From Vermamoeba vermiformis (lineage: Eukaryota), in the NCBI GenBank assembly GCA_045837725.1, contig JBEWZL010000102.1:124001-188000 (forward strand): a stretch of 64,000 nucleotides of DNA, written 5' to 3'. The notes below the pieces were generated by a model. The model searched no databases, had not been told where the DNA came from, and saw only the letters and a list, made by a program, of their open reading frames with translations. Below, in pieces: positions 5,079 through 58,744 of this stretch (position 1 is its first letter; the number at the start of each line of letters is the position of its first letter). The position numbers were made by a program, and so were the translations under genes.

Positions 5079-7722
5079 ATGGGTCGATCTTGGTACTTGG
5101 TCTTCATTCTAGGGTGCATCCTGCTTGGCGCCAGAGCTGCAGGTAAAGAGGGACTTTAAGCTTCATAATTACACCAAACATTAATGTCCATAAATATTGA
5201 TCATGTTATTATTAAAATATTTTTACTCATAGATTTTATAAATAGCTAATGATTCGATTTTATTCAAATCCAAAATAAATATTTCGATTCCGCTGTAATA
5301 CTATTATAAATAAGTTACTCGCGTGTACTTAATTATTATTTTCCATAGATGTTTATGTCTCCTCAAACGGTGTGGATTCAGACACTTGCGGAACGGGCGT
5401 TGCGCCTTGTGCTTCGTTAGCAGTTGCTGTACCAAAATTAAGCAGTGCCGGGGATAAGATCATAATATCAGGAGCTATTACAGGTATATTTACTCGGTCA
5501 GCTTGGCCTTATTCGAGTTACACATCCATGAAATTTAGCGAGCGAAACAAAATCTTTCATAAAATGCCCTCGTATATGAGTAATTATTAATCCCATTATA
5601 AGGTCAAAATACCGTCAATGTCACAATTACACGAGATTTGACTATTAAGTCCCAGTCCGGAAATCCTGCAGTGGATTTACTGGATGGTGCTGGTCTCGGT
5701 CCTATTTTCCGCGTGTGGAACGTTAGCAATACTACGAGCTATTCGATTGCATTCGATGGCATTGGCATTCAAAACTTCAACGCTTCAATGAACCCTTTCA
5801 GTACGTTAGATGCAGTACTTTTCATACAGACCTCATACTAACGGTCTAATTATGCAGACAATACCGACGGTGGTGTCATAGCTATCTATGAGTGCATTTT
5901 ATGCAAAGTATCGTTGTCTAACGTCGTTCTGAGCAATAATAAGGCTGCAAGAGGAGCCGTTGTGTGGATGTACGTTGAGCGTCATTCAGCTTCTGATCCC
6001 TCGGGCCTAATCATATTAAATAACGTCACTGCAATTGGAAATACTGCATCAGACTCAGGAGCGGTCATTTATTCTTATGGAGTGGATATTCAAGTGCAAT
6101 CACTGTACGTACTTTCCACGACATTATTCAGCCATACTAATTTTATTTTGATATAGTAATGCTAGTGGTAACTATGCTGGTGCCAGTGGCAGTGTATTGG
6201 ACATTGAACATCAAGCTCTAGTGACCATCACGAGCTCGTCTTTCTCTAACAACAACGCGGGTGACTTTGGTGGTGCCATTGCTTTCAACGAATGTACGTG
6301 CATTATAAGGCCGCGTTAATATCAACAATTTTGTTCTGACACTTTTAACAGTTGTCAAGGTCTACGCGAACGACAGTGTCTTCGTCAACAATCGCGCAGC
6401 TGATGAAGGTGGTGCCGTGTTCGTGTACACGAGTAAGTTCAACAAGCACTCGTTGTACCTCTTTCGGTGTCGTTAATTTTTGTGTTCGCCTTCAGCCGAC
6501 TCTTATTTCACCAACTGCAACTTCACCAACAACAGAGGAGGTGACGGCGGTGCTATTTTAGTCCGCCGATACAGCTACACTCAAGTCGACAACTGCCAGT
6601 TTACCGGCAACAATGGAGGTTATGGCGGTGCTATTTTTGCTCAAGAGGTAAACAAAGATGAATTTCGCGATGTTGTAAGTGTCAACGAGTTAATGGTATT
6701 GTTTTTAGCGCTCGGGCATTCGTAGCAACAACAGCGTGTTCAAGCGCAACAAGGCTGCGTTTGGCGGTGCTTTGGCGTGGTTGACAACGAGCAAGGGCAC
6801 TCTTGTTGGCACAACTTTTGAAGACAACATTGCCCAGCGTGGTGGTGCGTTGTTCTTGATGTACAACAACTTGGTAGCCAGTACGTGCACTTCTATAGCT
6901 ATGCATCACAATAATACTAATACCCATATTGTAGTCATGGCTAGCGATCTCGACACGAGCAACAATGCCACTGAATTTGGCTCGCAGATCTACTGCAGCT
7001 CCTCGTCAATTGACATCAACTCCACGACTGTCGCTGACAATCAAACACCTGGAAATGTCGATCAAGCCTTTTATTGCGCTGGTCAGCCCGCTGGAACTGT
7101 TTGCACTAGTACGTAGTCAATATTAAGCCTAAGTATGTTGCTAATAATAACTTATTTGTTTTGCAGTTCGCGGGGACGCGCCGTTCGATGGTTCGTGCGA
7201 CGTGTCAGTGCTTGGCAGCATCACAGACTCGATCACGGATTCACAAACAACCGCTCTGATTGTTGGTTTGTGCGTCGCTTTGGGCTGTGCAGCAATCATT
7301 ATCGTTGTGTCTATCGTCATGGCAAAGAAATTGCGCAGAGTAAGTCTCGAGAAATTTTAATCAACAAAATCTTGTCCCGTGAAACTTACGCGTTGTGCAG
7401 GTGAGACAAGCTGCTCCTGAAGACAAACAACAACATATGTGGGCTGCACTTGACGACCCCAGCATGGAGTCACCACGTCCGAGTGCTCCTTCACAGCCTG
7501 CTGAGCCCACGACCGCTGCGTAAGTCACGTGTCACAGCACTGTCCCAATCTAATGACACCTGCTAACTAATGTTTGTTAGTGCTAGCAGACCTGCTTCAG
7601 TTCGTGCGTCTTCACCGCTTGACTGGTACGACAATCCTGAGGCTCAACAAGAGTCCGATACTGGAGCGTGTAAAAGGACCGGGTGGAAGATCAGATCTGA
7701 TCGACTCGTTAGTTGTAGATAA
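5079..7722 (+). CDS. Type I membrane protein with right-handed beta-helix (pectin-lyase fold, Pmp-like GGA[I/L/V]-FxxN repeats)
   Basis: Signal peptide; VYVSSNGVDSDTCG...PCASL cap; repeated FxxNxA..GGAI/L/V; one TM segment (ALIVGLCVALGCAAIIIVVSIVMA) and a cytoplasmic tail; 3' end approximate. Confidence 0.8.
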
Positions 7723-7935
7723 TATTTGATAAATTGTACTAATAGTTTAGTTTATGCTACGCGAGGAAGTATATTACCGGGTTTGTTCGAATAATAATGC
7801 AGGCATTGCGAGAAATTTGAAATTTCCTTGCGAGCTTGATCCAAAAATCTTGCCAAAAAATCAAATCTTTTGTTCGAACATTAGATTTATTATTTATTTT
7901 AGTGCCGGTAACAACATTTCTCAGTTGCCTTAACG

Positions 7936-10900
7936 ATGTCTGATAAGAAAAAAGACAAAGAAAGTCCAAAGCGACTATTCGCGGCACGGTGTCTTCGCCT
8001 ACTAAAGAGCCGCAGGCCGAATTTCCACCAATGCCACCAGAGTCTCAACTAAATGAACGATTTGAAAAGCTAATGGTGCGTATTTTTAATTATTAGGCTC
8101 CAGATTTCAATCGGAAAATCTTTTTCTGTCCAAAATTGAAAATTGGAGAAAAGAGGACGTTTATTATATGTTGAGCATAACGTTGTATAAATACTCCAAG
8201 TGAATATAAAATTATAAAGATTTTTAAATTGACATTTTTTTGTAATTAACGCCAATTCAATAGGGAGAAATGGGTTATCCTGAGGAGATGCGCACGAAGA
8301 TGCGTGCATTTGCACCTGATAAAAAATGGACGTTAGTTTGTCAAGAGCAACATCGAGATAAAATGAAGGTAAGAAATTTATGATCTAGATCCAAATCCAC
8401 TTGATAAGCAAAGGAAACACTTCACTCATTATTTGATCGTGTAAAAATAATTAATTAACGTCATTTTTTCCATTGCCATTTCAACAAATTTAATTTCAGT
8501 CGATCGGTTAGCATCTAGTCTTAATTTGGAATTCTGTAGGTCTCTACACCAGAGTCAGTTATTAACAAGCTCAAAGAGAATGCTACGCGCAGTGATATGG
8601 AGCAGTTAGTCATCTTCTTGACCAAGGAATCAGTTAGCTGGGTTCTTGAATTTATTGAACGAAAAGGAGTCGAGTTATTGGGCGACATTCTCGAGAAAAC
8701 GCTGAACAAATCAATGTAAGTAGTATAATATATCATCAAGCAATTATAATACTGCGTAACAACCGATTGTACCGCGAGCTTGTACTGGGATCCGGTTGCT
8801 TAAATTTCCTTTCAATACTTCAAAACAACAAACAGTACTAATTCTTTTATAGTAAAGGAGATGCCGAGAAGGATATTATTACACAATGCATCTTGTCATT
8901 TAAGGGTGTATTCAGACAAAAAGTAAGGTTCCAGATGCGCTGTTGAATTCTCGACCTTCATTTACTAATCCATCAACGCTTGTAGGAAGGCTTTGAAGTC
9001 GTTAAACAATTTAAATCATTCGTTGATTTGATCCTTAAGAGCTACGAATACGTTAGCAGCAGAACAAAGATTATGATTTTGAACTTCATTGCCGTATTGT
9101 CCCTCGTCGACATTGAAATTCATCAGTAAGCCTTAATAATCCTATTTATTGACTATTATAATAGCCCTATTTTTATATTTCCTTATTAACATATTTTTAG
9201 CGCTACTCTTACCAAGATTCTGCCTTACGTGCAAGAGCTACTTTCGACACTTCAATCTGAGTCAGTTGATATGAAGGTACGTACTAGACCAATAAATAAT
9301 CATATAGATGCTGACTAAAATGCATTTAGATTGCCGGTTTGACGTGCATCAATGCCCTTGTGATTGCTGAAGGTCACGAAAGTCCCGAAAAAGATGTGTT
9401 GTACCAAACCATGATGGAGAAGGGTCTCAAACGATTTGTTCGAGTAAGTACAACTCATTATGATACACCATATTGTGGAATAAGTAACTAACGGCAAGCA
9501 CAATAGAGCATGAAAAAGCCGAATATTCCTGATGCTTTAGAAACTCAAATTGATGTCTTCGAAGACGGCATTGAACACGATGCAGACAGCGAAGAACAAT
9601 CAAAATTCACCGTCTCTTCTGGCAACCCCGAAGAAGCTTTCAGCAAGGTGCGCGAGCAACTGAAAGGCACACCGCTCTACAACGTGTTTGGCAACATTTT
9701 GAGTCACTTGTTGATGGTCAGACGTACTGGCAAGCCCGGTGCGACCACTTGGGACGTGTTGGCAGACTTTGTGGAAGTGATGGCTAGCACGGACAAGGAC
9801 TTGACTAGTCGCATTGAGTTGGCTAAAACTGTCACCGACCGCTTGCTACAGAAGCTTGGTGGCCGTGGTGATGACGCGTAAGTGACACTTGACACGTGTC
9901 AACAACAGAACCTCAATCTAACTCTCTCGCGTAGTGACATGGGCAGTGCTCCACCTCCTCCTCCTCCTCCTGGCGTGGGTGCCCCGCCTCCACCTCCTCC
10001 TCCTGGCGGTGCTGCTGACGACAGTGGCGCTCCTCCCCCACCTCCTCCTCCAGGCGGTGACGGTGGTCCACCACCCCCTCCCCCTCCACCAGGTGGCGCA
10101 GGCGGTCCTCCTCCTCCACCCCCTCCTCCAGGCGGTGCAGGTGGCCCTCCTCCCCCACCTCCTCCCGGTGGACGTAAGTCGCAAAACTCACTCGAACAAC
10201 GATGACTAACCTTTCGAAACCTACAGCAAAAGCACCAGGTGCACCACCAGCCCCAGCTCAGCCCAAGAAAAAGACCATTGTCCCTGGCACCAAGATGAGA
10301 CAGTTCAACTGGAACAAATTGGCACCGAACAAAGTCGCTAATACTATTTGGTCTAAGGTACGTTCAACAAGACACATGTCACAGATTATTTTTCGCGGTG
10401 TCAAAGTGTCTTCTTTTCGCTAACACTCACACCACCAGCTCGATGACGAGAAGGTGAAAATCAATCCGAAAGTGCTCGAAGACTTGTTCTGCGCTGCCAA
10501 GCCCAAGCCTGCCTCAGAAAATCCTGGCGGTGAAGAAGGAGGTGCTGCTAAACAGGCCAAAGCACAAGTCATCAACTTGTTGGACATGAAACGATCTCAG
10601 AATATTTGTAAGTAATTTGACCTAATTTCCTAATTTGGAAACTAATCACGTGCCTTTTCCTTTACAGCGATTATGTTGTCGCGACTTTCAGGCATGTCAA
10701 ACGAAGACATTAAGAAGGCTATTGTGAATATGGACGCTGAGAAGATTAGTCTCGAAACACTTCAAATTATGGTCCTGTATATTCCTCAGCCTGAAGAAGT
10801 AAGCCTGAATCTTCCTATTGATAACGAGCGGATCTAGCTTTACTAACGAACATCACTTTTAGATGGAAATGCTTAAAGAATACAAAGGTGATGTTACTGC

Positions 10901-12871
10901 TAATTTAGGCAAGGCTGAACGATATTTCTTGACCGTAAGTTACCGCGCTTAAGGTGTATCAGATCCTCTTCTAACAGTGAACTAGATTATGGATATTCAA
11001 CAACTCGAAGCTAAATTGACTGCTTGGGAGTTCCAACGTAGTTTTGAGTCTAAGATGGCCGTAATTAAAGAGGTATTTATCATTAATACGAATATCCAAT
11101 GCAGATCTAACCAACAAATTTCTAGTCCTTGAGCACGATCGGCCGAACACTCAAAGACATCAAGACCAACCAAAACCTACCTAAGGTCCTCGAGGTACGA
11201 TATAGTATTATTATTATCACTTACTATACTTTACTAACCAAAACCTTGTCCAGTACATTCTCGCCGTTGGTAATTACATCAACGGATCTACCAATCGTGG
11301 AGGCGCTTTTGGCTTTAAATTGAACTCTTTGTTAAGAGTATGTACATTTAACAGGATGTATTGTCGATTGATATTAATTGAGTCCTTGTAGATGTTGGAT
11401 GTCAAATCCGCAGTCGATGACAAATTAAGTTTGCTGCACTTTGTCGTGCAAGAATTCGAACAGACCAATCCTTCTGTAGCCAATCTCGCCGATGATTTCC
11501 CGACATTGGAAGCTGCTTCAAGAGGTACGTAACAAACATTTAGATATCAAAAGGACTCCGAACTTCGAATCCGTTTCGTTACTTGGACGTTTCCAATCGT
11601 TGATATTTTCTTAGAAAACATGACTATGTTGGCTGGTGATTTGAACAAATTGAAAGGAGGATTCTCGAAGTGCGACGGAATCGTCAAGAATCCCAATTCA
11701 GATCCCAAGTTCAAAGAGGCCGTTTCCGTATCCTTTTTTAACCATCATAGATCATAGCACTTTAATTTACATATGCGGTTTATTGTTATCCTTAACTAAT
11801 TTACCAGCGTTTCTTGACGGATGCCCAAGCTGCTTTCGACGCTGCTCAGAAACAACTCGAACAATATCAAAAAGAGCTGAAAGAGACTTTGACGTACTTT
11901 GCTGAAGACAATATGGAGTCCGATGAGTTCTTCGGCCTCCTCTATCAATTCGTATTCAACTTTGAGGTACGTCTGTTCTGCTCTCTTGCCGCCTTGAAAC
12001 CTCATTATCTAACAATTTCCTTATTTAGAAATGCAAAAAAGATCTTGCGAGAAAGAAGGCCCTCGAAGAAAAAGCAAAGCAGGCAGAAGAGCGAAAGAAG
12101 GTAAGAGACATTTTGCGTGTCCGACACGTGTCCTCGAGTTGTTCTAACAACTACGTGCTAGAACATGGTGGCTAACAAGAAAGCTCCTGGCATGGGAACA
12201 CAATCACCTAACGCTCTCGAAGACATGCTCAGTGAATTGGCTAGCGGCAATGCATTTTCAAAACGTAAGTTTGGATCGAAGGATCCGGTCAAGTTCTAAG
12301 ACCTAACACCAATTTTCTTGCACTAGAATCGGCGAGTGCTCGTCGCCAATCGATCATGGTCGGCAAGGCCCCTCAGCCAGTGATGCAGCCCGAGTTCTTG
12401 TTGAGAAAGTTGAAGCCCACAGGACAAGACAACCAGGCACCCAAGGACACCAACACAACGAGCCCTGGCACGCTCAACTTGCCCAAACTGAACCCCGTGG
12501 GTCCTAAGACTGGTGCAGGTGATGCTAATGGCAAGACTTCTCCTCGTGACCAACCGCAGCTGAGTCCCGTCAAGCCGAGCGCATTGAAGCAATCTACTTC
12601 ACCGACCCCTGCGCCAGTTAAGCAAGCAGCAGCTACCGAGACTAAGACTGCTACTACTAGCACGACGACTCCCACAACAACAACAACAGCAACTCCGACT
12701 CCCACATCCACATCCACACTGGCACCAACGGCAACGGCTACTCAACCATTGACGAATAGTCAATCCGCGACAAGCAAGCACGCTGAAGTGAAATCGCCTT
12801 CTACGGATAAGAAGAAAGATAAAAAAGAGAAGGAGAAGAAATCCAAAGAGAAAGAGAAGAAAAAAAAGTAA
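7936..12871 (+). CDS. Diaphanous-related formin (GBD/FH3-FH1-FH2-DAD-like, Thr/Pro and Lys-rich tail); contains a U12-type intron; apparent -1 frameshift near 7948-7953
   Basis: MPPESQLNERFEKLM GBD start; poly-Pro FH1; MRQFNWNKL, LLDMKRSQNISIML, ILAVGNYINGSTNRGGAFGFKL FH2 motifs; LEDMLSELASGNAF DAD-like. Confidence 0.95.
9889..9902. promoter_or_regulatory. Intronic palindrome TTGACACGTGTCAA (representative copy; exact 12-mer also at 34468, 38498, 46012, 57696)
   Basis: Exact recurrence in introns of five unrelated genes; function inferred only. Confidence 0.6.
9951..10167 (+). repeat. Coding poly-proline (CCT/CCA/CCC) tracts of the formin FH1 domain
   Basis: Six PPPPPPP(P) tracts separated by short G/A/D linkers. 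Confidence 0.9.
11728..11807 (+). other. U12-type (minor spliceosome) GT-AG intron in formin FH2
   Basis: 5'ss GTATCCTTT; branch site TATCCTTAAC (11787-11796), ~12 nt before CAG; removal joins KEAVS|RFLTDAQ in frame. Confidence 0.9.
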
Positions 12872-32350: not shown

Positions 32351-34646
32351 ATGCAACATCGTATCGCAGTCTTCGTTGCAGTGGCTATGATAGTCAGGTA
32401 AATCCGGGATTGAATCTGGCGAACATTTCAAAAGTATTTATTGAAGCGGCACTATACTAATTTTAATTATGATAGTGTTGCCACTGCATTCAGCCCTATT
32501 ACCGTCGTACAAACAGCGAAGGATAACGGCGATCGCTTGACTGCTAAGCCATCTGTCAACTTTTCACCTGCTCCTGTCGCTGCCTCTATTAATATTACTG
32601 TTGACGTCTCCAAAAAATACCAAGAAATTATTGGTAAGGATATTTTAATAACTTAAAGCACCCGATCCCCAGATCAAAAAAATGATATTTTGACAGTTTA
32701 CTCTTCTTAGTTAAAACATAATATACCCTAATAATATTCTCGTATTAATAGGCTTCGGCGGTGCTTTGACCGAGTCCTCTGCCTATGTTTATTCTCAATT
32801 GAGCTCTGACTTGCAACAAGAGATTATCAACGCCTATTTTGGCCCTAGTACGTACCTAGAGACATCTATATGATATCCTTATATTTAGATGTAAAATCGC
32901 TGTTCACTTCGAAGTTACTTGTGCTCCATCTGGTTACAAGTCTGTTTCTAATGATTGCATTTAAATAGACGGCAATCAATACACTGTCTGCCGCACTCAC
33001 ATCAACAGCTGCGACTTCTCATTGAACAGCTGGTCGTTTGATGACTCGCCTAATGACATGAGCTTGGTCAACTTCACTATCGATCACCAAAAGAAGTGGA
33101 TGTTCCCGCTCATCAATGCTGCTCTTCAAGCCACGTAAGGATCTCAAATGTGGCATTAATATTAAATTATGGAAATTGCAGCCATTAATCATTTCAAACG
33201 ACAGTTCTGGTCGCTTAAAGATCTTCGCTACTCCTTGGTCTCCTCCAGCTTGGATGAAGACGTAAGCAACTCATCATATTATTCTTTCTATCTACACGTA
33301 AATCTAATCATTGACTACCATACAGTAACAATCAAATGGACGGTAGTGGCTCGCCTTGCCTTAAGAAGGGCATGGAACCAGTCTGGGCTCAGTTCATTTC
33401 TGACTCGATCACTGCTTATCACAACAACGGTATCCCGATGTGGGGCTTGACTATTCAAAACGAGCCTGAATTCGCTGCTCCTTGGGGTAAGCAGATCCGT
33501 ATTCTATAGCCCGAGTCCAGGACTACTTTACGAACTCATTTTCTTCATATGGTAACGTTAGATATGGTTCTAATTATGCGAATTTATAGAGGCCTGCACC
33601 TTCACTCCCGCTGAAGAAAAAGTATTCTTGCGCGATCACTTGGGTCCTATTTTGGCTCGCGACCATCCTGGTCTTCAAGTGATGATTTACGACCACAACA
33701 AAGATCACGTGGTTGATTGGGTCAAAGAGATCTTCTCCGATCCTGTTGCTGCCAAGTACGCTCAAGGTGTTGCCTTCCATTGGGTAAGTTAATCATCTAG
33801 CTTTATTTTACACGTGCTTATGGTCCTCTTTAGTACTCCGGCAATCAGTTTGAAAACTTGGCTCAAGCTCACGCTATTGCCCCGAACAAGTTCTTCTTGG
33901 CCACTGAAGCTACTGAAGGTTAGTGTCCTCACAGAGGTTACTTTTGAGTCGGGTTCTAAGTCATCAATTTTAGGTCCCGGCGTTGTTATTGGTGACTGGG
34001 GCCGTGGTGAGCACTACGGTGAAGATATGATTGGTGACTTGCAGAACTGGGCTGCTGGTTGGGTCGACGTAAGATTTGCACGATACCTTATGTATGACCT
34101 GTGTACTTGATGATCTTTTAGTGGAACATCGTTCTTGACATGCAAGGTGGTCCCAATCACTTGAACAACTGGTGCGATGCTCCCATCATTGCTGGTAAGT
34201 AGTCACGTGATTAGTGAGAAATGGATTCTGTGTTAATAACGTTGCAATAGATGCCAAGGCTGGCAAGCTCTACTATCAGATCCCTTACTATTACATGGGT
34301 CAAATCACTCGCTTTGTGCTGCCTGACTCGTATCACATTGACACTAAGGTACGTCCCTTCATTGCTATTGTAATGCCATATCTAACATGTTCATCTAAGG
34401 TTGATGGCAACGTTGACACTAATGACTTTATGGTTGTTGGTAAGTGTCATTCGAAGTCAATAGTACTTGACACGTGTCACTAACTGTCACTCTTAATCTG
34501 CAGGCTTCTACACTCCGCTCAACCAACGTGTGCTCGTTGTGTTGAACAAGAGCAATAACAGCTACAAATTCCAGGTCGCAGACAACGGTCAATACGCCCT
34601 CTTGGACAGCCCCGCTCACTCCATCAAGACCCTCATCTATCAATAA
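32351..34646 (+). CDS. GBA: Lysosomal glucosylceramidase (GH30)
   Basis: Signal peptide; YQEIIGFGGALTES; HINSCDFS; FATPWSPPAWMK; WGLTIQNEP (acid/base); GVAFHWY; LATEA (nucleophile); GWVDWNIVLD..GGPNH. Confidence 0.95.
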
Positions 34647-36771: not shown

Positions 36772-39581
36772 ATGGCAGAAGGAAGATCTAAAAGCGACTC
36801 AGTTGGTAATTACGTTTATTTATTGATTATTATAGATGCGCTAAATATACTATCAGATTAATATTGAATTGAATTAATCCTTTAACTTTGGTTTAAATAA
36901 AACATAATTACTGGTCAAGAATAACGGATGTCATAAAAATCTTTATTTTTTTCTTAGACAAAAATTTCAATAGACTTCTCTAACGTAAATTTAATATGCT
37001 GATTGCTATTCGATGCATATTACAGCAATTTAATTTAATTCAATCGAAATTGAAACGAATAAAATTCGCATTGAATTGAATTTCAATCGGCAGTTAAATC
37101 TTACTATTAATTATAATCAAAGATTGTATATATTTCTTCAGTTATGCTGTTTTAATGGTGGATTATAAAATATTTCCTTGCATCATAATTAAATTTTAAA
37201 TCCGTGCAGAAAATCTTAACTGACAGCGAATTAAATTTCTTAAATTACGACATCATCCTTATTAATCTTATTTAATATAGCTGATATGAAGAAATATTGC
37301 AAATTTATGTACGATCCAGCGTGCAAAGAGCCCATCCCAGATTTGAAAGTTTCAACGACCACAAATACCAAAGCAGTTGCTTTTCAACAGTACTTGAAGC
37401 AATATTATATGGAATTATTCAACTATAGACGCGCTAGAACCGTCAGGTACTAAAATGACTTCGATCTGCCAAATTCCAATTCAAATTAATCGCCAAATTA
37501 ATTGATTTTATTAATAAATAGCCTTATTAATACTATTATATTACTAGACAAGACAGAATCGAGCGAGAGTCAGCGAAAATGAGCGGTGATGACAAACAAA
37601 AATTCTTGCGCGAAAATGCGTTGAAAGAGACGCAATATTTGAGACTACGCAGAACTCGCACTTCGATCGATGACTTCACTCTACTTGCCTTATTAGGCAA
37701 AGGAGGATACGGTGAAGTGTATTTGAGTCGCATGAATGACACTGGCGAAATTGTGGCCTTGAAACGAATGAAAAAATCAAGATTTACCAACTTCAATCAG
37801 GTACGCGCTATTTTTAGCTTCACTGAACCACACGGTTCTCATAACAATTCGTTCATGAAAATTTAATCTAACGAATCAGTATGGGACTTAACATCTAATC
37901 TTTGCAATAATTTATTTCGTGTGGCTGCGATTCCAGCCGTTCATGAACCAAGCTTTGCATTCATTTATTGACACTTCTATTTGACAGGTGTCACGTATTC
38001 GCAATGAACGCGATGTCATGTCCAAACACAACAGTGAATGGCTCGCACAGCTCAAATATTCATTCACGACACCAAAATACATTTATTTAGCTATGGTACG
38101 TGCAAATACAACACTTTTAATATCATAGGCCATGTTTTATTATCAATTGAAATCACAATTGGATTGCACTTGTAATTTAGTTTTCAATCTTAGCTGAAAT
38201 TTCCTATTTAGGAATACATCCCAGGCGGTGACATGAAGGCGCTGCTCGATCAAGTCGGTTGCTTTGCAGAAGAGTACGCCAAATTCTTCTTTGCAGAAAT
38301 GTTGCTGGCCGTGGACACGCTGCACAAAATGGGTTATGTCCATCGCGACCTCAAACCAGACAATTTTCTGATCGATCGATCGGGACACATGAAACTGATC
38401 GATTTTGGTCTCTCCAAAGACGGTCTCAATCAAAAATACAGCTCGACGTTCAATTTGAAGGTAAAAAAATCAAATTTTTCACGGTGTCATTTTTGTTTGA
38501 CACGTGTCACTTTGATTGACATTTGTGACTAATGCACGCACTATATAGAGAGCTAGTATCCACTCAGGCTCGAGCATTGATACCTCGCACAGCGGCAACA
38601 GCATGAAAGTGACACGTGCCTCGCGCATGCGCAGTCGTCGCATGGCCTATTCAGTGGTCGGCAGTCCCGAGTACATGGCCGTGGAAGTGCTCGACGAGAA
38701 GGGTTACACGCACTTGTGTGACTACTGGAGCTTGGGCATCATCTTCTACGAGCTCTTGTACGGTACGTCCTCACAGTCCATTCACGGAAACAATTGCAGT
38801 GACTCATTTCCTTATTTAGGCATCACACCTTTCTGGTCCGAATCCATCATCGAAGTGTTCGGCAACATTATGTAAGATCGAATATCTGGCATTAATAGAA
38901 GCAAGACTAATATCAATCTGTGACTAGGAACTGGCAGAAGTTGTTAGGCCCGCCAGAGCTCGATGAAGGCGAAGAGATTGAAGTGTCTGCCGACGCATGG
39001 GACCTCATCAGAAAGTACGTGTTACTTGCTCTTTATATTCCGCTGTTCACATCTAACCATTCCCGTTCAGATTGTTGTGCGCTCCTGAAGATCGTCTCGG
39101 CAGGAACGGAGTTGAAGAGATCAAAGAACACAAATTCTTCAAGTAGGCATTCGTATTAAACATCATGAACAAGTTTCTAATATCTACCTCTAGGGGCTTC
39201 AATTGGAACAACATTCGCACGATGGAGCCACCATTCATCCCCGAGCTTGAAGGTGACTTGGACACGTCGTACTTCTCGTCGCAAGAACTGCCCGAAGAGA
39301 ACATTCAAGAGATTCTCAACGAAGAGCTCGAGAAGGGTGAAGCAGCCTCGCACTTGCACATGGCACGCAAGTCATTCGCGAAGGACCAAGAGACGCCCAA
39401 CAACGAGCAGCGCGTGTTCCATCAACTGGCCTTCAAGGGCTTCACGTGGAAGCATTATGACCCGAAGAACTTCAGCGTGGACGGACTCGAGGAGAGCGAT
39501 GACAAGAAAGACAAGAAGAAGAGTGACAAGGACAAGGTCAAGAAGAAAGATGACGGCAAGAAGCAAGACAAGAAGAAATAA
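36772..39581 (+). CDS. NDR/LATS-family AGC kinase (Dbf2/Sid2-like)
   Basis: KETQYLRLRR MOB-binding region; LGKGGYGEV; VALKRM; HRDLKPDN; DFG; SVVGSPEYMAVE; hydrophobic motif FKGFTW; exon 1 MAEGRSKSDSV joined in frame across a 475-nt intron. Confidence 0.95.
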
Positions 39582-44788: not shown

Positions 44789-47700
44789 TTATTCTTCCAT
44801 CGCATCTTTATCTCTTCGCGACTTTTTCTTCTCTTTGTCGTCGTGTTTCTTGGTCTTGGCGTGTTTCTTATCTTCCACTTTTTCTTCGTGTTCTTCTTCG
44901 GCACTCAGATCCGCTTCATCTTCGAGTTTATCAGCGAGTGTTGAACCGAACAGATTCGATTGCAATTGCCCGACAATAACGGAGCGAATGTAGTTGACGT
45001 CTTGAGGGTTTGTTGACTTGATCTTCGTGTGACCGCGCAGCACATCCGTTGAGGTCTGCTTGATCGTGCCTTGTTCGCGTTCCAAGTCGAATTTGAGTTG
45101 TTTTAATGCTTCCTATAAGTTCATAAGGTTAGTATAGTGCTACAATAGTGTTATTAATGACATACATCGTATTGAGGCATGAGCTGGTTGACTTGTTCCC
45201 ATTCAATGTCGAATTCTTTTTGACGCGAGTTCTCAGCCTTGCGCAGAATGGTCTTGAAGAAGCGCACTTCCTCTTTGCGCAGAATAGTGAAACATTGGCC
45301 TGACCGACCTGCACGTGCTGTACGACCGACTCTGAAAGATAAAGTGGTTCATATAAGGACTCCTTTTGAGTGTTCAAATAGTACCTGTGAATGTAAGTTT
45401 TGATGTGTTTGGGGATGTCGTAGTTGATCACTGTTGTCACGTCGTCCAAATCGAGACCACGACTCATAATGTCCGAGCAGATGATTCTACATGTAGCAGC
45501 CATCGTTAGTACTAATCAAACAAGCAAGTGCATCACGTACAAGTTGATGGTGCCGTCTTTGAACTGCTTCAACATGCGTTCACGTTCGTGTTGTGCGAGG
45601 TTTGAAGAGTACTCCGCGAAGTGGAACTGCACAGCGTGTTCAGTGATCAGTGCGCGCAACAAGAGCGTCAAACGATGCGTGGCCTCGAGACTGGACGTGA
45701 AGCAGAGTGTTTGTGACAGTTTGAGCTTGTTGATCAGATAGGCCAACACGACTGGCTTGACTTCATTGCGACACACCACCATTTGTTGCTGATCACCCAA
45801 CAGTCAGTAATATTACTAAATAAGGCAATAGCACTACGTACCGTGAGAGTGGACGGTATCTTGTAAATGTACTCTGTAGTCGCGGTGAAGTACTTGGGAT
45901 TGACCAGTTTAAGACTGGCAATCTTGCGCGGGTTCTGCGTCAGTGTGGCCGAGAAAAGTAGCTTCTGGAGCTATAAATAGAGCGTTGTTAACTACTGCGC
46001 GAGTGTAGGATTGACACGTGTCACATGTCACTTACCTGTGGGAATTGAAGTGTCTCTTGACGCACTGCATTGATCGATCGTGTCGTGCACGGGTCAGAAA
46101 CGAATTCTTTGTTGCTAAATAAGGCAGTCAGAAATCACTGCAAAGAATGTAGGACTCGTGTACGTACTCTCCTTCCTTATTTGGCAATGCTAAAAACTGT
46201 CCGCGTTCAGTGTTGTGAATAGCTTTGAACATGTTTGACAGCCAGTCTTGATAGGATTGCATCAATAGACGATCAGCTTCGTCAATTACCTAATTAGGAA
46301 ATCAGTAACGGCAGTTGTGCATGCACCGAAAAGGGTAAAAAAAAATTCAAAAAGCATGATCAGTTCGAGTAGGAGGTAAGTTATAATCACGAGGTCATAA
46401 CAGTTTATCATCATGTGCTTTTTGAGAATTAAATTTCACTGAAAGTAGTGTCAATCAGTGACTTTCATTCGCGCCACTAGATCCCGAGTGCAAATAATTT
46501 GGGACGAAAAAAGAAGTTCAGAATGTGTCTATTAGTGTCGTATATACCGATTGAATAAGTTTTGCATTACTTACGAGGTAATTTACATGCTGGAGAGTGA
46601 ATCCAGGAGTGCCGTTAACATGATCCATCAAACGACCAGGTGTTGCGACTATAATATCGACATTGCTCACTCCTCCGCGTAAATTGGGCCTATTATTCAA
46701 TATTTAACGGCACTGCCATTATTTTGATCCAGTGGCACTACTCACGGTATTTTATCTGCGTCACCAACGAGACTGAATTGTTCTTCTTTGAATGATTTCT
46801 CACCATATATGGCTTGGAGCTATACAAGCATGGTATTAGAGTCTATTTATGCTACGATCATGATGATTAGCGTACCTTAAGTCCAGTTCCCTTGATCAGT
46901 TGTCGAAACACTTCTTTGACTTGCACGACGAGGTCTCTAGTGGGCACTAATACTACACAACGAACGCGTACAATGGAGCGCGTCATAAGGGCCTTATAAA
47001 TAATATTAAATACACGTACATGAACGGTTCTAAACTGGATCAGATGCCAGTACACGACGTTCAAAAAATCATCCGAGCATTCATTTGGGCACCAATTTAG
47101 CATTAAAATATGTAATATAATTATAAGGAAGACTTACGTTGACAATGGGAATGGCATAAGCTAAGGTCTTGCCAGATCCAGTCGGTGCACTCACGCAAAT
47201 ATCGCCACCAACGACATTAGCAGTCATAATATGCGGAATAACGCACATTTGTACGGGGAATAACTCGTCAATACCCATCTCGCGGAGATTGGTGATGATC
47301 TGACAGACAAATTAATACGAGTAGAACGCAAATAAGTAAGCTCGTTTGGTATATCAAGCAGAGTGCCAATACCATGTGGCAAATGAATAAAAATGAATAG
47401 AAAATAATAATAATAATAATAATACAATGTATCAATCATTTTCCCACTTACTTGTTCTTTGAGCAAATTCGTTTTCTGCAGATCGTCGAGTGATATTTTC
47501 TGATCTGAGCTAAAAAGAAGCGTTAGTGTATTGTATAACGATCGTATGCAATTTAAATAATCAAAAGCAGTTCAATAAACACGGATCTGGATCGCGCGTG
47601 TCAAAAATATTATTTAAATATTACAATAAATTGTAAAATAAATACCTTATTAAAACAGGATTCTTCATCCACTTAGGAACGACTTTATCTTGAATTGAGG

Positions 47701-51611: not shown

Positions 51612-51700
51612 AGTTGCAATATAATATTACAATATGACAATCATCTATTGTTTGTGCATGGTTTGGAATCGCCAATGAACTGCGTAGAGCGGAAAAGTTT

Positions 51701-53418
51701 TTATTTGACAAACGCACCACGTGACGCCACTTCGATAGCGATCAGTTCCCTCCACAGTACTTTGAGAGACATATGACGTAGTTGTCGTTTGTCGAGGAGA
51801 GTGATCAGCCACTCTGCTTGTGTGTGCGTCAACAACTCACCAATCACAAAGCACATTGTGTGCAGTACCAGTTCTGAGGGCAGTTGTGCGAACAGGCCTC
51901 GCTCCATTGGTGTCAGTATTGTGAGCATTTTAGTGACAACGGCACCTAGACGAGGTGCGTATGTGCTGCATTCATAATTAGAGCGGTAATGCTTTGTGAG
52001 GGTACGTACATATTGCCGAAATGCAATGTCTGTAACGTCTCATTTATAGCCGAGTGATGCGGTGAACAGGTGAGGATGAGAGTGGTCTTAATGTGGCCGC
52101 TGAGTGAGGCCTATAGCAGTGTTATTAGTCCCTAAAGTGTCAAATTTATTGCAGAAGTTACCGTGAGCAATCGCGTCAATTTGCTGTCTCTGTATGGCAC
52201 GTGCTGTCGATTAGATGCCAGTGCAGTCAGACACTGCTTCAGCGAGGCTAATGACTTGTTGATATTGCCAGCCTACAGAGTAATTCAGCTCAGTACGTGC
52301 ACTGCTCTGATGAATGATTCTTACCTCACGCAATCCTAGAGCGCTAGTGAACATCGCTCGTTCAGACCCTGCAAGATCAACAAAAGTGAGAGTGCTTGAC
52401 GGACTGTTGGCTCTGTGCAGTGTGAGCAACACAATGGTGTGTGAGCGCGAGCTCAGTGTACTCATGCGCGTGCACTGAATGGCTCTGCTAGCGCGTTAGA
52501 ATTGCAACAGGGACACCAATCTACGCACGTACTTGTTGCTAGTACCTTGCTGTACAAGCTGATCAAACTCCGCTGTAGTGGTGATGGTCTGCTTACTTTG
52601 TTAGTACGAGCTCGGGCTCAGTATGGTTGCATCTGTCGTGTTGTTACCTCTTCACTCAAGTGCTCGATATATATTCGACGATCAACGCCTTCTCGGATGC
52701 GTAACTGATTATTATCGGACGGGTTCAGCAAGTCAAGCAGGTGTTCGTTGTAAATCTCTAATCAAAGGCATCAGTCTCGATGAGTGAGTCACGAGCTAAC
52801 TGACCGTAAAATGAGCACGTGACTTTGATGGTCTCGGCTGGTCTCTCATTGGCCAGGGCAAACAACAACTGGCCACTCAGCGGAATCAGTCCTTTGACCG
52901 CACCTGTGCCAAATATCGAATACGTCTTGCCCGTGCCTGTCTGTCCATAGGCCATTATCGTGTTGCTGACCCCGTGCCACAAGTCACTAGTGATATTAGT
53001 CAATCATGATTATAGACGATGCGAATGACATTTCTTACTGCACGGCCGGTTGAGCAACATTCTTGAAAAAATCTTCTGCGGTCGTCTCGGGAGGGAAGAT
53101 CTAAATATTATAAGGCACAGGCTTTGTGCGACTCAATTACATTCAAATACCTTGTCAAATTGAAATAGGGACGCTGATTTGTCCTCTGATAGTGTCACTG
53201 ATATAGCCCGGTCAATTAATATTGCTACTTTAGCACCTTTTTCATTCTCTTGCAAGGCTAGTTCGCGAGGTAGTGCTGGTCTCACTCTGCATACTACTCG
53301 GACTAGTTTAAATAAATTAAATTATTTTTTGTTTTTGTGAATTATAAATTGGAATCTTCTCACACTTATACGGCTTCTTTGTATTATCTTTTGTGTTATC
53401 TTTGGTATTTTTCTCCAT
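51701..53418 (-). CDS. Kinesin motor protein without an obvious stalk; short F-box-like C-terminal tail
   Basis: [74 protein letters not shown]; tail [17 protein letters not shown]. Confidence 0.9.
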
Positions 53419-53809
53419 TTTGATGGTAATTATGACAAGCCGAAAATCGAATTGATTACAACTGCTGAGTTTATAGTGCCCATCAATGGGGTTCGTGGAT
53501 ATTAATACTCTACGTAAGGCATGCCTTTGTGGTATTGTGTCACTATGATTAAGCGACGCGTGGTATGTGGTCAAACAAATGCAAACCACTTTTAACTCTG
53601 TGAATTTTGATTTCCACAAAAACCGGCCCTGACATCATCGCTGGCACTATTGTTACGAAGTGCGAGTGGACTAGATAGTCACTCGAGATATTTCTTTGAA
53701 CTTCGTGGCGCTTTTCGGCACATTTTTTCATTCGCGACGAGTATGTATCGGTGTCCAACAAAAAAGCCAAAAAATTGAGAGGGCCGAACAATCAGGCAAA
53801 TTCCATGCG

Positions 53810-55597
53810 ATGACCACAAAGCAAGCAGCTGCTAGAGTAGATCTAGCATACAAGAAGATCACTGACTTCTCACCTGAGCAGATCGAGCTCATTAAAGGCT
53901 GTCGCGAGGTGGATCTGACTGGCAATTCCATTAGGTACGTGGGAGAAATCTTTTTAAATCATGTGCAATGTACTGACGTAAAATTTAGCGATTTATCTTT
54001 GCTGCGAGACTGCACACAGATCGAAATCTTGGTCCTGGACGAAAATACAATTACATCCAATTCTCGAATACCGAAATTGCCAAAATTAGATACACTATGG
54101 GTCAATAAGAATAAAATAGCAAATTTGTCAGTATTTATTGACAAGGTAAGTGCAGATCTGGATTGCAAAACAGTAATTAATTAATTTCCCGCATTCCTAT
54201 CAATTTAATATTGTCATAATATTAAATTATAATTTTCTTATTTGCGCGCAGTATTGTATTAAGATTTTTCGTTAGATTTTTCGCTGTTAAATTTGTGATT
54301 GGATCCAGCAGTGCGCTGCTGGTCCGTTGTATAGTTATACGAAGCTCTTTCTTCGGTACAATATTAATATATCTTTTAGCTTGTAGAACGAGCCCCGCAA
54401 TTGAAATACTTGTCAATGCTGAATAATGATGCCTGTCCTAATTATTTCAACGGCGGCACTCCAAAACAATACAACGACTACAGGTAATCTTTATAGCTAT
54501 TATTCTATTCATATCAAATTCAACAGGAGACATTTAAAGGTGTCAGGATCCAATATTAATAATCAATTCGACTGTAGATTGTACGTGATCAATCGACTGC
54601 GCAATTTGAAGAATTTAGACAACGTAGATGTCACCGAACAAGAGCGACAAGAGGCCTATAAATTATACGGACAACTGGCCCTCAGTAAGACCGGCGACGA
54701 GTCAAAACGAAAAGGTAACTATATTATGTATAAGTTATATTGCCTATGATACAGCATATGTAGCGCTTATGTATTGATATATTTTCAGCCAATTTGCTCA
54801 TCGTCGATTACTTTGCGAGTGAGTTGAAATTTTATTACAATCATATTATTAAATAAGGTGTAGTAAATTAATACCTTATTGTATTAGAAAAAGAAGAAGA
54901 AGAAAAGCAACGTAAATTAGAAATGTCAAAAAAGAGAAAAGAACGCGAGGAGCGCAAGAAAAGGTCGTTGCAGAAAAAAGAAGAGGCACATCGCAAGGTA
55001 CGCGGAGAATAGACAAGGCTAAATATAGTGCTAATGTGACGTACAGAAATTAGAAGAAAAGAAGAAAGCGAGCCTATTACGATCACGTGGCACACTTGAC
55101 ACGAAGTCAGTGACACCTGTCACCATTGAGACCTCACAACCGGCCACTACCAACACTGCACCTGTGCTGGACTTGCCTGATTTGGAGTTCTTGGCAGTCA
55201 CTGGCAAGTCAGAGTCGAAGGCTGAACTGCTCGTGCCTCCATTCCCGTCACGGACCTCGTCATCGACCTCGATCTCATCGAGTGAAGTGTTCGTCGATGT
55301 GCCGCTCAACCAATCAATTCAAGCGCCTAACAACGACGGCTCATTCAGTTCACTGTTCTCGCGGCTGAAAGACGAGACGAGTGATTCAGACGACGATGAC
55401 TTGTTGTTCAGCAGTGAGAGCGATAGTGCGTGGAGCACGAGCGATGACTTTGAGCGCAGCAGTGAAATTCCACGTGATTTACCTGCTGTTGATAACACAC
55501 CTCCTCCTGTACATGATGAAGACGATTGGTAAGTCCTCGCTATCATTATGAACAAGCTCTAACGTGACATTTTGACAGGTCAAGTGATGACGACTAG
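53810..55597 (+). CDS. LRMDA: Leucine-rich repeat protein, LRMDA/C10orf11-like, with coiled coil and acidic tail
   Basis: [63 protein letters not shown] (LRRcap); tail SDDDDLLF...DEDDWSSDDD*. Confidence 0.75.
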
Positions 55598-55647
55598 TCT
55601 CAGGCCCATTATTTATTGCTGTAAATAAACTCTTGTGTCATATTGCA

Positions 55648-57099
55648 CTAATCATCGTACGATTGGTTCTTCTGTCGGCGTGCTTTGTTCCGTTGCTGTT
55701 GATTGTGCAATTTTTTCTGTCTGCGGTCCTGTGTGCCACCCATTTGTTCAAAGCCTTTTTTCTGTCGCTTGGTCCAGTTAGCAAATTTAGGTTTATCATT
55801 GTCTTCGTCGCTCTCTTCACTCTCCTCGCTGTCTTTTTCTTCAGTTGACTCGTCATTCTCGTCACTCTCCTCTGCTTCTTTGTTGGCTAGTTTGGCTTGT
55901 TGTTTCTGCCACACCGCATCGAGTGGTGTCACTTCAGCGATTTCAATGTTCAGTGCGAATGAGGGCTCTAACTGCACCGACAAATATGTTTTGTAGAATC
56001 CGTCTGGATCCTCCTCTGTAATAAGGTTAAGCACGATATCATATCTCCATGACACTTACCTTCTTTTCCAGTCTTCACATTGATAATTATCTTGTCAATC
56101 GATTGCTCGCCAAAATCAACATCAGCGTATTTGGTGCAGAAGTTTGCAAGCTTCTTTGGGGTCAGAGGTGACTTGCCTTTGACTTCCTTGGCCGATTTTT
56201 CGATTTTGTTCTTGTACAGCGTTACGTGCGGGTGAAATCTGCTGCTGGCACCTTCAATCAGGAAACTTGAATTGGATTTTTTTGACGTGCTTGAACAATT
56301 CATCTGTAGAGCTTAGTCAAAGAAAATAATATAATAAAATGAGGTTAATAAGTGATTAAAGTGTCGATAGGATACGCGCCAAGTGTTCTAACATGACTTT
56401 GTGCTTGTCGTCTTTAAGACCAATCCACACAATGCACTTGCCACTGCCGTAGAAGTGTCCGACATTTTGAAATCTGAGCACGGGCTTTTCAGTGACTTTG
56501 AGCTCTGTTTTGACCTTTTCGAGGTCCTCTCCTTGTTCGCCGCTCTCACTTTCATCTTCTTCACTCTCCTCATCATCATCGTCACTCTCGTTATCCTCGT
56601 CATCACTATTTGCATCCTCTTCGTCGCCATTATTTCGGTTGGCGTTAATAATAATATTATCAGAAGAAGAATTAATGTCGTTAGTGTTGGGTTGTTAGTG
56701 TCTTGTTGTGTCTCGCTGACTTGTTTTAATTGTAACTCGATCGTTTGATCATCAAAGTATTTTCGGAATATAGATTCGGCTTGTTGTAATATGCCTATTA
56801 GTTCTTTGTACTCGCTGGTGTTTTGTATCCTCAAGACCAATAATGTAACGTGAAATTTTGAAGCTGGGGTCAACTTATTTTTATTAATTTTCATTGCCTT
56901 GCTATTAAATGAATGGTTATTTAGGAAAGGTTACGGCGCGTAGCTGCGATTTTTAAAAATAAATGGGATTTTTTTCTTACTTGAGCTCATTTTGAATTTG
57001 TTCAAATTTGGACACAGTCTCCGTATCGTGGATTTTAACGCATAATATGAAGTTGCTTCGCTTAGGTCCTTTGTGACCTTTCTTTATTTTTTCTGCCAT
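55648..57099 (-). CDS. 2H phosphoesterase, AKAP7/LigT-like; apparent frameshifts at 56689-56691 and 56277-56283
   Basis: SNFILCVKI..; first HxT FHVTLLVL; VGHF; second HxT FHPHVTLYK; DFGEQSIDKI; DGFY; acidic insert and basic tail. Confidence 0.82.
56304..56375 (-). other. Probable U12-type intron in the 2H phosphoesterase gene
   Basis: 5'ss GTATCCTA; branch-like TTTCTTTGAC ~13 nt before CAG; gives LEHLA|HELFKHVKK, but needs A7->A6 just downstream to stay in frame. Confidence 0.65.
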
Positions 57100-57178
57100 A
57101 GTTGTGTGGTGCTCACTTTCGGTTTTTGATAAAAAAGGTAAAATATGTTCGCAACGATTTCGCAGTTCGGCTTTATTT

Positions 57179-58744
57179 TTAGAACGTGTCATAGAATTTA
57201 ACATTTCCTACCAAGTGCCGCACAGAATCAACGGTTTTGTTACTATGTGAATGACTTTTTAGCACACTCAACACGGCTTCAATCGGATCTGTTCCGCTCA
57301 ATATTTCACCAATCACTGCGCGTTCTTTGGCATCTAATTGCGACATGATGTCGAAGGCCTTGGACTTGCTCTCATCGAGTGCTGGTTTGTTGTCTTCAGT
57401 CCACTTCTTCAGTCGCTGTGCCGTGGTCTCAATGTTCTGATACAAGAGCGTCATGAACTTGTCCATGCGTGCTTTGAGACCGGTTTTGATTTCTGCTGCT
57501 TTAACATCGTCCATCTTCTGATCGAGCGCCAACTTCCACACGTGCCTAGTGCATGGTTAACACGACGTTGTGATGATTGCTCAACTTACCATTCTTGACA
57601 GAACAGATCAGCATTGCCCTTGCCATGGTCGGTGTACCAATTAGACTTGATTTTGTACATTCTGATGTGGAGTATTGTCAGTACAAGTGGCTTATTGACA
57701 CGTGTCACTAAGTGTCACTCACCGTCCATCGTCAAATCGAAGTACATAGCCTTCAATGTCTTGTTCCTTGCCAATGTTGTGAATCAGCTCTTGAATGGAC
57801 TTGGCGTCACCTCGGCGTGCGGACACTACGGGCACGCTTTTGAACTTGTTGCAGTACTGCACCATCTCCTCGTAGCGCATGTACTCGCCTGTCTTCATGT
57901 CTCTGCGCGAGTATTAACAACGATAACACTAAGATCATTATAGTACCTGATGGCAGTTACGATGAGCTGTGACTCGTGATATTTGACGACAAGTGTGCCC
58001 GTGTGATTGATCCACTCGAAGATTGGTGTTTGACCGTGTTCGAGGCACTCGTTGGCCAGTGAATAGTATTCGCGGTCTGGCACAGTCTTCAACCACTTTT
58101 CAACGGAATTTGATATCTTGTTGTCGCAGCCTGTTTTAGTGCCGAATCGAACGACCCCTTGCGACTTGAATGGAAACACAAAGGCACCTGTGATATGGAT
58201 TGTTAAGTTGATCGGATCCACAACGTTATCGGACTTACCGTCGAGTTTCTCCAATAATATATAAGGCGCATTAATATCGAGTGATGTAGCATCGGTCTCG
58301 TCGAGTTCATTCACGTTAAAGAATTTATGATAAGGTCTTGCGAGAATTTCGCCGGTTGACGCACTAGTTAATTCAAATATGAGCTCACATCCCACCTAGA
58401 GGGACATAATTACCTAAATGTGATGCCTCTGCATTCTCTGCGAATTTGAGCGTTTATGAAGCTCTGGTCGTCTTCGGCTTTATTTGGATCTGAAATTTGA
58501 AAATTTAGAAAATTAACTATAAATACGTGGCAGATAAATTTGGAAATATTAGATCGGTATATAATTATTTTTACTATAGCTCACCTGGAAAAGTTCCAAC
58601 GTGTCCAAAATGATAATTAAAATTAATGTAGTCGTCTTTCTGCTTTTCTGTAAAAGTGGCGCAGTCTTTAACAGCCTCTCGTACTTGAGATATATCAGTG
58701 ATAACTGCAAAGAGTGGCCTTGCTGCAGATCCGTTGTGCTCCAT
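57179..58744 (-). CDS. T4 Rnl1-type ATP-dependent RNA ligase, intron-containing
   Basis: Spliced RECRGITFS..ILARPYHKFFNVNE; motif I EKLDG; FGTKTG; TPIFEW; LIVTAIRDMKTGEY; motif IV IEGYV; motif V YKIKSNWY; helical C-terminal domain; six GT-AG introns. Confidence 0.92.

Follow-up and report, generated by a model that had tools for sequence, protein, structure and literature searches.

Short motifs that define chromosome domains include the MSL recognition elements of Drosophila, the MEX/rex and pairing-centre motifs of C. elegans, and matS of E. coli. E-box readers of the Cbf1/USF/MITF type share the consensus RTCACRTG, and TALE homeodomains are familiar mainly as developmental regulators. According to the accessible parts of the respective sources, the CDEI of budding-yeast point centromeres is a Cbf1 site and yeast centromere cores are AT-rich (PMC13017519); two TGIF1 homeodomains were crystallised on ATTGACAGCTGTCAAT (PMC6158717); the TALE palindrome TGACAGCTGTCA is that of TGIF1, MEIS1, and Homothorax (PMC6158717; bioRxiv 10.1101/706473), with a head-to-head TGACA layout used as the seed for Homothorax dimers (10.1101/706473); and the TALE factor EiHbox1 of Entamoeba invadens regulates cytoskeletal and encystation genes (PMC11586516). 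This work concerns a 12-mer palindrome, TGACACGTGTCA, that a first-pass annotation noticed in introns of unrelated genes of Vermamoeba vermiformis. That annotation covered the 64,000 nucleotides of C102:124001-188000 (contig JBEWZL010000102.1 of assembly GCA_045837725.1), referred to here as the window. Talin, TALE genes, TTAGGG telomeres, and short GT-AG introns in the genome (43.3 Mb, 309 contigs) are in keeping with an amoeba-type protist, although a talin homology search gave a single, uninformative match. The palindrome is enriched genome-wide, concentrated in gene bodies beyond their 5′ ends, and retained in a relative; its layout resembles that of TALE dimer sites, and its density rises toward one GC-rich block per contig.

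The 43-Mb genome contains 2,793 copies of the 12-mer, or about one per 15.5 kb on average, versus 4 of a reversed control. Close analysis covered the whole of contig C3 and C102:24001-288000 (824,681 bases, 1.9% of the genome; "the 825 kb" below), where gene models were built ab initio after training with the motif masked. Here, 49 of the 64 exact copies are intronic, 11 are coding, and 4 are intergenic, with the bases themselves split 21%, 63%, and 16%, respectively. The first-pass annotation had named in advance, as tests of its idea, enrichment over a Markov background and commonness in introns relative to exons and intergenic DNA. The 98 intronic strand-counts compare with 0.12 to 0.97 from order-3 and order-4 Markov models, and density is 2.85 per 10 kb in introns versus 0.21 in exons (13.5-fold). 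None of the 49 intronic copies lies <500 nt from the ATG, a zone holding 59,651 of 168,078 intron bases (p = 8e-10), and the divergent (promoter) gaps, 41.9 kb in all, contain no site. The five intergenic sites of the wider form TGACA-SS-TGTCA fall in convergent (3) or tandem (2) gaps, the median intergenic gap being ∼260 nt. Within introns, the branch-point zone is the only part that sites avoid (4 versus 11.6 expected). Coding exons hold 32 of the 95 TGACA-SS-TGTCA sites, and coding copies use two open frames, giving peptides such as VTRV, VTPV, VTGV, and DTC.

In the window, seven matches with at most one mismatch to the 12-mer compare with 0.19 expected, a number reached in none of 100 shuffles. 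Five of these are exact: 9890..9901, in a predicted formin intron (9878-9934, plus strand) where an extra TGACAC half-site at 9883 overlaps the donor; 34468..34479, in the predicted last intron (34440-34503, plus) of a GH30 glucosylceramidase-like gene, with a GTGTCA half-site at 34444; 38498..38509, in a predicted intron (38461-38548, plus) of a protein kinase gene, with a GTGTCA half-site at 38484; 46012..46023, in a predicted intron (45971-46035, minus) of a DEAD-box helicase gene, the donor of which carries a TGACAT half-site; and 57696..57707, in a predicted intron (57662-57722, minus) of a T4-Rnl1-like RNA ligase gene, with a half-site at 57712. The other two, overlooked at first, are the variant TGACAG|GTGTCA (TGACAGGTGTCA; 37982..37993), which lies across the acceptor of a predicted kinase-gene intron (37801-37987, plus), and TGACACCTGTCA (55111..55122), which codes for V-T-P-V in an exon of the plus-strand gene 53810-55597. 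More distant copies are the hybrid AGTCACGTGTCA at 7523..7534 (predicted intron 7520-7580, plus), combining an E-box-type left flank with a right half TGTCA and containing the near copy GTCACGTGTC at 7524, and two weak members in predicted formin introns: GACACATGTC at 10371 (frame 10370..10381, two mismatches; intron 10358-10438, plus) and the core GACACGTGTC at 12123 (frame 12122..12133, both outer bases changed; intron 12101-12161, plus).

Much of the original description of these copies held up. The five exact and three near copies listed in it all fall in introns predicted by the motif-masked model, and these eight sites lie 1,037 to 3,853 nt from the modelled ATG, in keeping with the ∼1 kb or more proposed (the true formin start probably lies upstream of the modelled one, 8270). 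Copy number is far above chance, as claimed, and Pfam agrees at the family level with the genes named (FH3/FH2 formin, Glyco_hydro_30C, Pkinase, DEAD/Helicase_C, and RNA_lig_T4_1). The extra half-sites seen beside most copies recur in the 825 kb, where site-bearing introns contain 34 TGACA half-sites versus 11.0 expected. Introns are not the sole setting of the motif: coding exons hold 11 of the 64 exact copies in the 825 kb, and 16 of the 26 with a GG/CC centre. Three introns do begin with the nearly identical letters quoted, but this is not general; sites occur anywhere in the intron outside the branch-point zone. The RNA ligase gene (window positions 57179-58744, minus) contains introns, and the Pfam matches of its exons are below the cut-off. 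On C3, an RtcB-like gene likewise bears a site.

A role in splicing had also been considered. The intronic excess would suit an RNA-level splicing element, as would the frequent overlap of half-sites with donors (GTAAGTGACA), with CTGAC branch points, and with TGACAG acceptors. However, one-third of sites are coding (32/95, as above), the asymmetric form occurs in both orientations (15 and 7), site-bearing introns have ordinary lengths (59 versus 57 nt, p = 0.26), and CTRAY branch points are found in 20/38 of them versus 660/1,225 arm introns. The pairing probability of the palindrome stem is ≤0.09 in all five window introns, on which basis an RNA hairpin was rejected. The coding copies, ordinary intron features, and lack of pairing indicate a DNA-level element fitted around splice signals; the palindrome is unlikely to be a splicing signal, and we would give an RNA-level splicing function very little weight. 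The similar starts of three window introns could alternatively be scars of a transposon or introner family, an idea with a negligible chance of being correct: any likeness between flanks ends after one or two bases, and all 81 introns compared with a relative (see below) are also present there. A remnant of an introner or miniature inverted-repeat transposable element (MITE) was accordingly rejected, as flanks are not shared and the 81 introns include no recent gain.

The DNA-level site follows a defined grammar. In introns, TGACA-NN-TGTCA occurs 56 times with a 2-bp spacer and 0 to 5 times with each other spacer from 0 to 20; the 1-bp version was found once in 825 kb. The centres of the 95 TGACA-SS-TGTCA sites are CG in 64, GG/CC in 26, and GC in 5, compared to 62.4:29.2:3.4 expected from independent TGACAC and TGACAG half-sites (p = 0.29). 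Two further sites have a CATGTG centre within TGACA/TGTCA flanks, and lone TGACA half-sites are ∼3-fold denser in site-bearing introns. For E-boxes flanked by GTCA/ATCA/AGCA...TGAC, only the CG centre is enriched. This restriction of RTCA-NN-TGAC E-boxes to CG, as opposed to the mixed centres of the 12-mer, indicates that the genome has two grammars. Two layouts had been offered for the palindrome at the outset: that of a TALE dimer, which fits in accepting CG, GG/CC, and GC centres, and that of a G/E-box, which fits poorly given that true E-boxes here have CG only.

As in the palindrome of TGIF1, MEIS1, and Homothorax, the halves are head-to-head TGACA sequences with a 2-bp centre, and this genome encodes the same WFINARRR helix. 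Each described palindrome takes two homeodomains, and by analogy such a pair is proposed for the 12-mer. Unlike that palindrome, the preferred centre here is CG rather than GC, and, unlike animal TALE sites as described in the accessible parts of these sources, the V. vermiformis site exists in thousands of exact copies, is missing from promoters and 5′ ends, includes coding copies, and follows a chromosome gradient. Ten TALE homeodomain matches were found in the genome. The helix 3 sequence WFINARRR is read directly at loci L079 and L086 and by predicted splicing at L083-L085, with L079 closest to PKNOX1, MEIS, and TGIF. Locus L084 (396-2088, minus) is predicted to encode a TALE homeodomain together with PHD fingers, one above the Pfam cut-off and one below; this product could be a candidate reader, possibly one kept off 5′ nucleosomes. 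Overall, the 12-mer shows three of the four testable features of a TALE dimer site, membership being provisional because binding is predicted from sequence, and a TALE homeodomain is its probable reader. EiHbox1 offers a parallel as an amoebal TALE factor with cytoskeletal genes among its proposed targets; its sites were predicted in promoters using animal matrices, and, relative to the available portion of that paper, a gene-body palindrome and chromosome gradient are particular to the present genome (PMC11586516). The repABC parS sequence GTTGACAGCTGTCAAC happens to match the TGACA-SS-TGTCA layout (PMC9040568); no link in sequence or protein emerged, though no search was aimed at ParB-like proteins. 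Separately, locus L080 (430-1731; C263:147.3-148.6 kb) contains two small TALE homeodomain genes head to head, with ∼120 nt between predicted starts.

That gene layout recalls the HD1/HD2 mating-type pairs of fungi. A different class of reader for the 12-mer would follow if it were a CACGTG E-box with altered flanks and its reader a basic helix-loop-helix leucine zipper (bHLH-ZIP) or G-box basic leucine zipper (bZIP) protein, perhaps the same factor that reads RTCACGTGAY, the second motif of this genome. The CACGTG core is common to both, its positions 4 and 5 are the least variable in one-mismatch copies (3 and 0), hybrid sites occur, and the two motifs covary from gene to gene. The genome also yields five bHLH matches, among which L089 is MITF/USF/SREBP-like with an H-E-R basic region and has Cbf1 among its matches (E 9e-5); L091 and L093 are further bHLH-ZIP candidates. 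Class-B bHLH proteins, however, use CATGTG as their second-choice core and do not tolerate CAGGTG or CAGCTG, an intolerance seen for RTCACGTGAY only; the 12-mer has GG/CC 26 times, GC 5 times, and CA/TG 2 times. G-box bZIP proteins need an invariant ACGT core, which GG/CC centres destroy and which is absent from 31 of the 95 sites (no search was aimed at bZIP genes). Lone TGACA half-sites without an E-box are, moreover, 3-fold enriched beside sites. We consider an E-box reader of the 12-mer unlikely and retain the TALE pair as the preferred candidate. One bHLH gene (L090, 913-1650, minus) has a coding sequence packed with both motifs, the locus containing two palindromes and five E-box matches.

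Conservation of the site in orthologous introns, a check proposed in the first-pass annotation, was assessed with metagenomic sequences. A scan for donor-plus-motif returned 50 loci, of which 21 (13 distinct) come from a single related organism; the remainder comprise one locus of the same species (97-98% identity), one unassigned locus (L129), and 27 others, which showed no further motif enrichment and are in many cases copies of one unrelated locus. Seven of the 13 distinct loci were paired with this genome, at 71-87% identity in matched pieces (the relative is about 75% identical). All 81 comparable introns, with or without a site, are common to both species. After removal of the seven introns picked by the search pattern, the site is present in both species in 5 introns, only here in 3, only in the relative in 2, and in neither in 64 (p = 7e-5). 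Thus, five of the eight unselected sites have a counterpart in the relative's orthologous intron, while other intronic 12-mers are shared in 31 of 3,688 cases (0.8%); of the seven pattern-picked introns, five also have a site in this genome. In one intron the 12-mer is intact between unalignable bases, and in another a CG and a CC site are swapped between species in compensatory fashion. In exons, third codon positions within CACGTG are identical in 83/93 cases versus 397/620 for the same codons elsewhere, neighbouring positions not being independent. Because the relative keeps sites in orthologous introns, the site appears to be under selection, and we are confident that the palindrome is a selected DNA-level binding site. 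At one relative locus (L140, 2010-2085), the relative apparently has a GC donor where the intron of this genome has a GT donor.

One GC-rich block per contig, ∼60 kb in length, has gene bodies saturated with the second motif, RTCACGTGAY: C3:418-482 kb (L022-L029), C102:209-254 kb (L050-L054), and C44:335-383 kb (L195-L198). Exonic CACGTG occurs at 3.0 per kb inside the C3 and C102 blocks versus 0.45 outside, with 5′ ends and gaps spared. The motif also enters codons (HVT peptides), and some block genes carry 10 to 26 sites where neighbours have none. In these domains, GC content at third codon positions (GC3) and intron GC are high, introns are fewer, and amino acid use is shifted (His, 3.3% versus 2.1%; Arg, 5.9% versus 4.6%). 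Twenty 3-kb samples of the telomere-ended contig C44 revealed a single block. Genome-wide, CACGTGAC doublets number 230 versus 1 for the control. Among the doublet matches listed (100 rows, 32 contigs), 18 of the 20 contigs of known length have at least two events, and these lie within 70 kb on 16 of the 18 versus 4.1 expected, the exceptions being C36 and C121. Helical or nucleosomal periodicity was not seen among domain E-boxes.

The blocks have ∼3 times the density of exact 12-mers found elsewhere (20 copies in 109 kb versus 44 in 716 kb). Per kb of distal intron, sites number 2.0 at ≤32 kb from the block centre, falling to 0.7 between 32 and 80 kb and to 0.15-0.47 at greater distances. GC content and both motifs plateau within 30 kb of the non-coding element described below and drop farther out; the window, 44-108 kb from the C102 copy of this element, sits on the flank of the gradient. 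On viral contigs, the doublet pattern gave one unrelated match only. A 64% GC viral contig, unrelated to this genome, has two GACACGTGTC palindromes near TTGACA in an operator-pair-like arrangement (L088:2960-3040).

Molecular drive, in which biased gene conversion or repair favours motif-bearing alleles and does so most in a recombination-rich, GC-rich block, could in principle produce such a pattern. The motif invades coding sequence and shifts amino acid use in the domains, where GC3 and intron GC are high and introns few; seven PF00145 matches indicate C5-methyltransferase domains, and conservation can be mimicked by such a process. HIP1 of cyanobacteria, an iterated palindrome of the drive type, is spread through all sequence classes. 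The V. vermiformis palindrome, by comparison, is absent from 5′ ends and divergent gaps. GC content shows no local peak next to sites on the arms (residual, +0.009 ± 0.008 at 100-300 nt), and CpG has not decayed at the centre, where substitutions bear no trace of 5-methylcytosine (C>T 2, C>A 2, C>G 26). The promoter and 5′ exclusion, independent half-sites, and homotypic clustering better fit a protein under selection, and we regard drive as improbable.

Such a protein might still act gene by gene, through intragenic TALE enhancer or silencer sites in a compact genome, e.g., for an encystation programme. The Entamoeba TALE factor controls cytoskeletal and encystation genes in the part of the study available (PMC11586516), sites here cluster with half-sites and turn over within introns as enhancer sites do, and intergenic room is scarce. 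On the other hand, site-bearing genes have no evident common function: none was apparent across 85 exons from domains and 68 from arms, many lacking a Pfam match, and the families include cullin, P450, P-type ATPases, PPR, beta-COP, myotubularin, and Sin3. The spread over arm genes is Poisson-like (33 of 314 with a site versus 34.7 expected), sites avoid promoter gaps and first introns, and their density tracks distance to the element. Gene-specific regulation is in our estimate a poor prospect, if less so than drive, and a chromatin-organising role is mildly favoured on these sequence patterns.

Comparison of the C3 and C102 blocks revealed a shared non-coding stretch mid-block. This element is ∼630 bp long and CpG-poor, with terminal inverted repeats of 19-27 nt and 19-bp GGACR-NNN-YGTCC subrepeats; copies include L052:4356-4992 (C102:232.36-232.99 kb), L025:5820-7220, and L160:3960-4586. 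Three short probes located it on 67 contigs, and on 67 of 67 at a single locus (span, ≤5.8 kb); this count refers to contigs with a match, not all of which are complete chromosomes. With random placement on 90-150 contigs, one locus per contig has a probability of 1e-8 or less. Among the matches listed, 42 of 44 collapsed E-box doublet events lie ≤35 kb from the element (9.6 expected), as do 77 of 85 doublet rows on 25 contigs; seven doublet contigs gave no element match with the three short probes. The ∼630 bp themselves contain no E-box, and neither a tRNA match (6 loci) nor an Rfam match (2 loci) was obtained. GC content is 0.41-0.44 in the surrounding gap and 0.36 inside the element. In the relative, the same two flanking genes in one case enclose a ∼950-nt CpG-poor gap without similarity to the element.

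One locus per chromosome, variable position, location at contig breaks (≤5 kb from the contig start in 9 of 67), and, in the one case compared, a position that seems to be kept while the sequence changed together suggest a centromere, an identity that we find reasonably likely, with a centromere-targeted MITE or a single early origin as possible alternatives. Under a replication model, each chromosome would have one early origin zone, and the 12-mer would be a scattered signal for licensing or timing. The single locus per contig and the mean of about one exact site per 15.5 kb agree with this, and early replication can raise GC content; however, neither domain has a consistent GC or AT skew switch of the kind associated with replication, and the sites lie inside transcribed genes, leaving this model with only a slim chance. 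For the centromere interpretation, budding yeast provides the comparison. RTCACGTGAY has the Cbf1-type consensus, surrounds a one-per-contig element, and has a matching bHLH-ZIP in L089; by the available part of the source, yeast has one CDEI site beside an AT-rich core, whereas here dozens occur in gene bodies over ∼60 kb of GC-rich DNA (PMC13017519). The 12-mer, unlike CDEI, follows a grammar other than that of the Cbf1-type E-box. The arrangement is also akin to the MSL, MEX/rex, pairing-centre, and matS systems in that the number and position of short motifs define a chromosomal domain; matS differs in its 1-bp spacer, the form occurring once in 825 kb here. The head-to-head TALE pair and the motif-packed bHLH gene lie 15-19 kb from the C263 element and 17-20 kb from the C276 element, respectively.

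Starting from the enrichment of the sites, their placement and conservation, the two grammars, and the domain with its element, we infer the proteins, their effect, and the centromere as follows. The 12-mer would be a double-stranded DNA binding site of two head-to-head TGACA(C/G) half-sites, bound by a pair of TALE-class homeodomains related to PKNOX, MEIS, and TGIF. It would be under selection to lie in the transcribed gene body past the first ∼500 nt, in introns that have room and in exons wherever the protein can accommodate V/L-T-R/G/P-V or D-T-C. RTCACGTGAY, for which a MITF/USF/Cbf1-like bHLH-ZIP is the probable reader, would fill gene bodies ∼30 kb to each side of the element, the two motifs forming one chromosome-scale code. 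Bound factors may then organise gene-body chromatin by bringing in a co-repressor, a remodeller, or an SMC loader; this would happen sparsely on arms, as in the window, and densely in the pericentric domain. The initial suggestion of a genome-wide gene-body DNA-binding or chromatin element is borne out as regards enrichment, 5′ exclusion, and conservation, with binding itself a prediction. Taken whole, a TALE pair in gene bodies with a bHLH-ZIP centrally, setting chromatin or SMC loading, has a little under an even chance of being right. A more ambitious version, in which chromosome architecture is written into genes, is possible but doubtful: the transposon-like element would be a short centromere core on many small chromosomes, and the E-box and TALE palindrome code would specify a ∼60-kb pericentric domain with a sparser arm scaffold.

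Several results weigh against this interpretation. Most sites lie outside the domains, with 44 of the 64 exact copies found there and 9 of the 15 doublets that were placed, such that a pericentric role is not the whole story. TGACAC makes up 81% of half-sites, contrary to the TGACAG preference of animal structures, and the animal GC centre is the rarest form (5/95), implying that the reader's sixth-base preference must differ from that of animal TALE proteins. Hybrids of the two motifs (TGACACGTGACA type) number 11, and per-gene densities of the motifs correlate (rho, 0.37 in domains and 0.23 on arms); the shared CACGTG core, hybrids, and covariation could also result from a single bHLH protein. 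The AT-rich core of yeasts has no equivalent in a GC-rich domain with a core GC content of 0.41-0.44. Introns are ab initio predictions, and the loci compared between species lie mostly in or near GC-rich domains, with the window's own sites outside that comparison.

If the proposal is true, a homeodomain dimer, possibly a TALE-PHD protein, would serve chromosome structure instead of acting at promoters, suggesting a possible structural role for TALE homeodomains in a unicellular lineage. The DNA-binding code would be strong enough to constrain synonymous sites and to shift amino acid composition over chromosomal blocks. The element would also provide exact, testable positions for the candidate centromeres of a protist genome that is not known to have any mapped so far; in the accessible part of an Acanthamoeba Hi-C study, centromere positions are still needed (PMC9528979). 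Even if the plain reading alone holds, the palindrome would be a conserved gene-body binding site of unusual sharpness for which candidate readers can be named. The literature searched, subscription papers and supplements being outside its coverage, contained no description of the motif or domain.

Other sequence features of the contigs were recorded. In genes across C3 and C102, those of the window included, introns have a GC content of 0.305 close to the ATG and of 0.35-0.38 more than 1.5 kb from it, and GC3 climbs from 0.455 to about 0.55. Further over-represented intronic words are RGATCY, TTCATGAA, CCTAATT/CCAAATTAGG, and AAGTGTCA. Islands almost free of CpG occur on C3 near 6.5, 91.5-93, 188, and 552-554 kb (L001, L010, L019, and L036) in a genome with an observed/expected CpG ratio of about 1.1, and may be methylated repeats. 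A degenerate tandem array lies near the right end of C3 (556.5-558.4 kb; L036), and a near-identical dispersed repeat of ∼118 bp is found at four places on C102 (near 45.7, 46.5, 196.8, and 211.7 kb).

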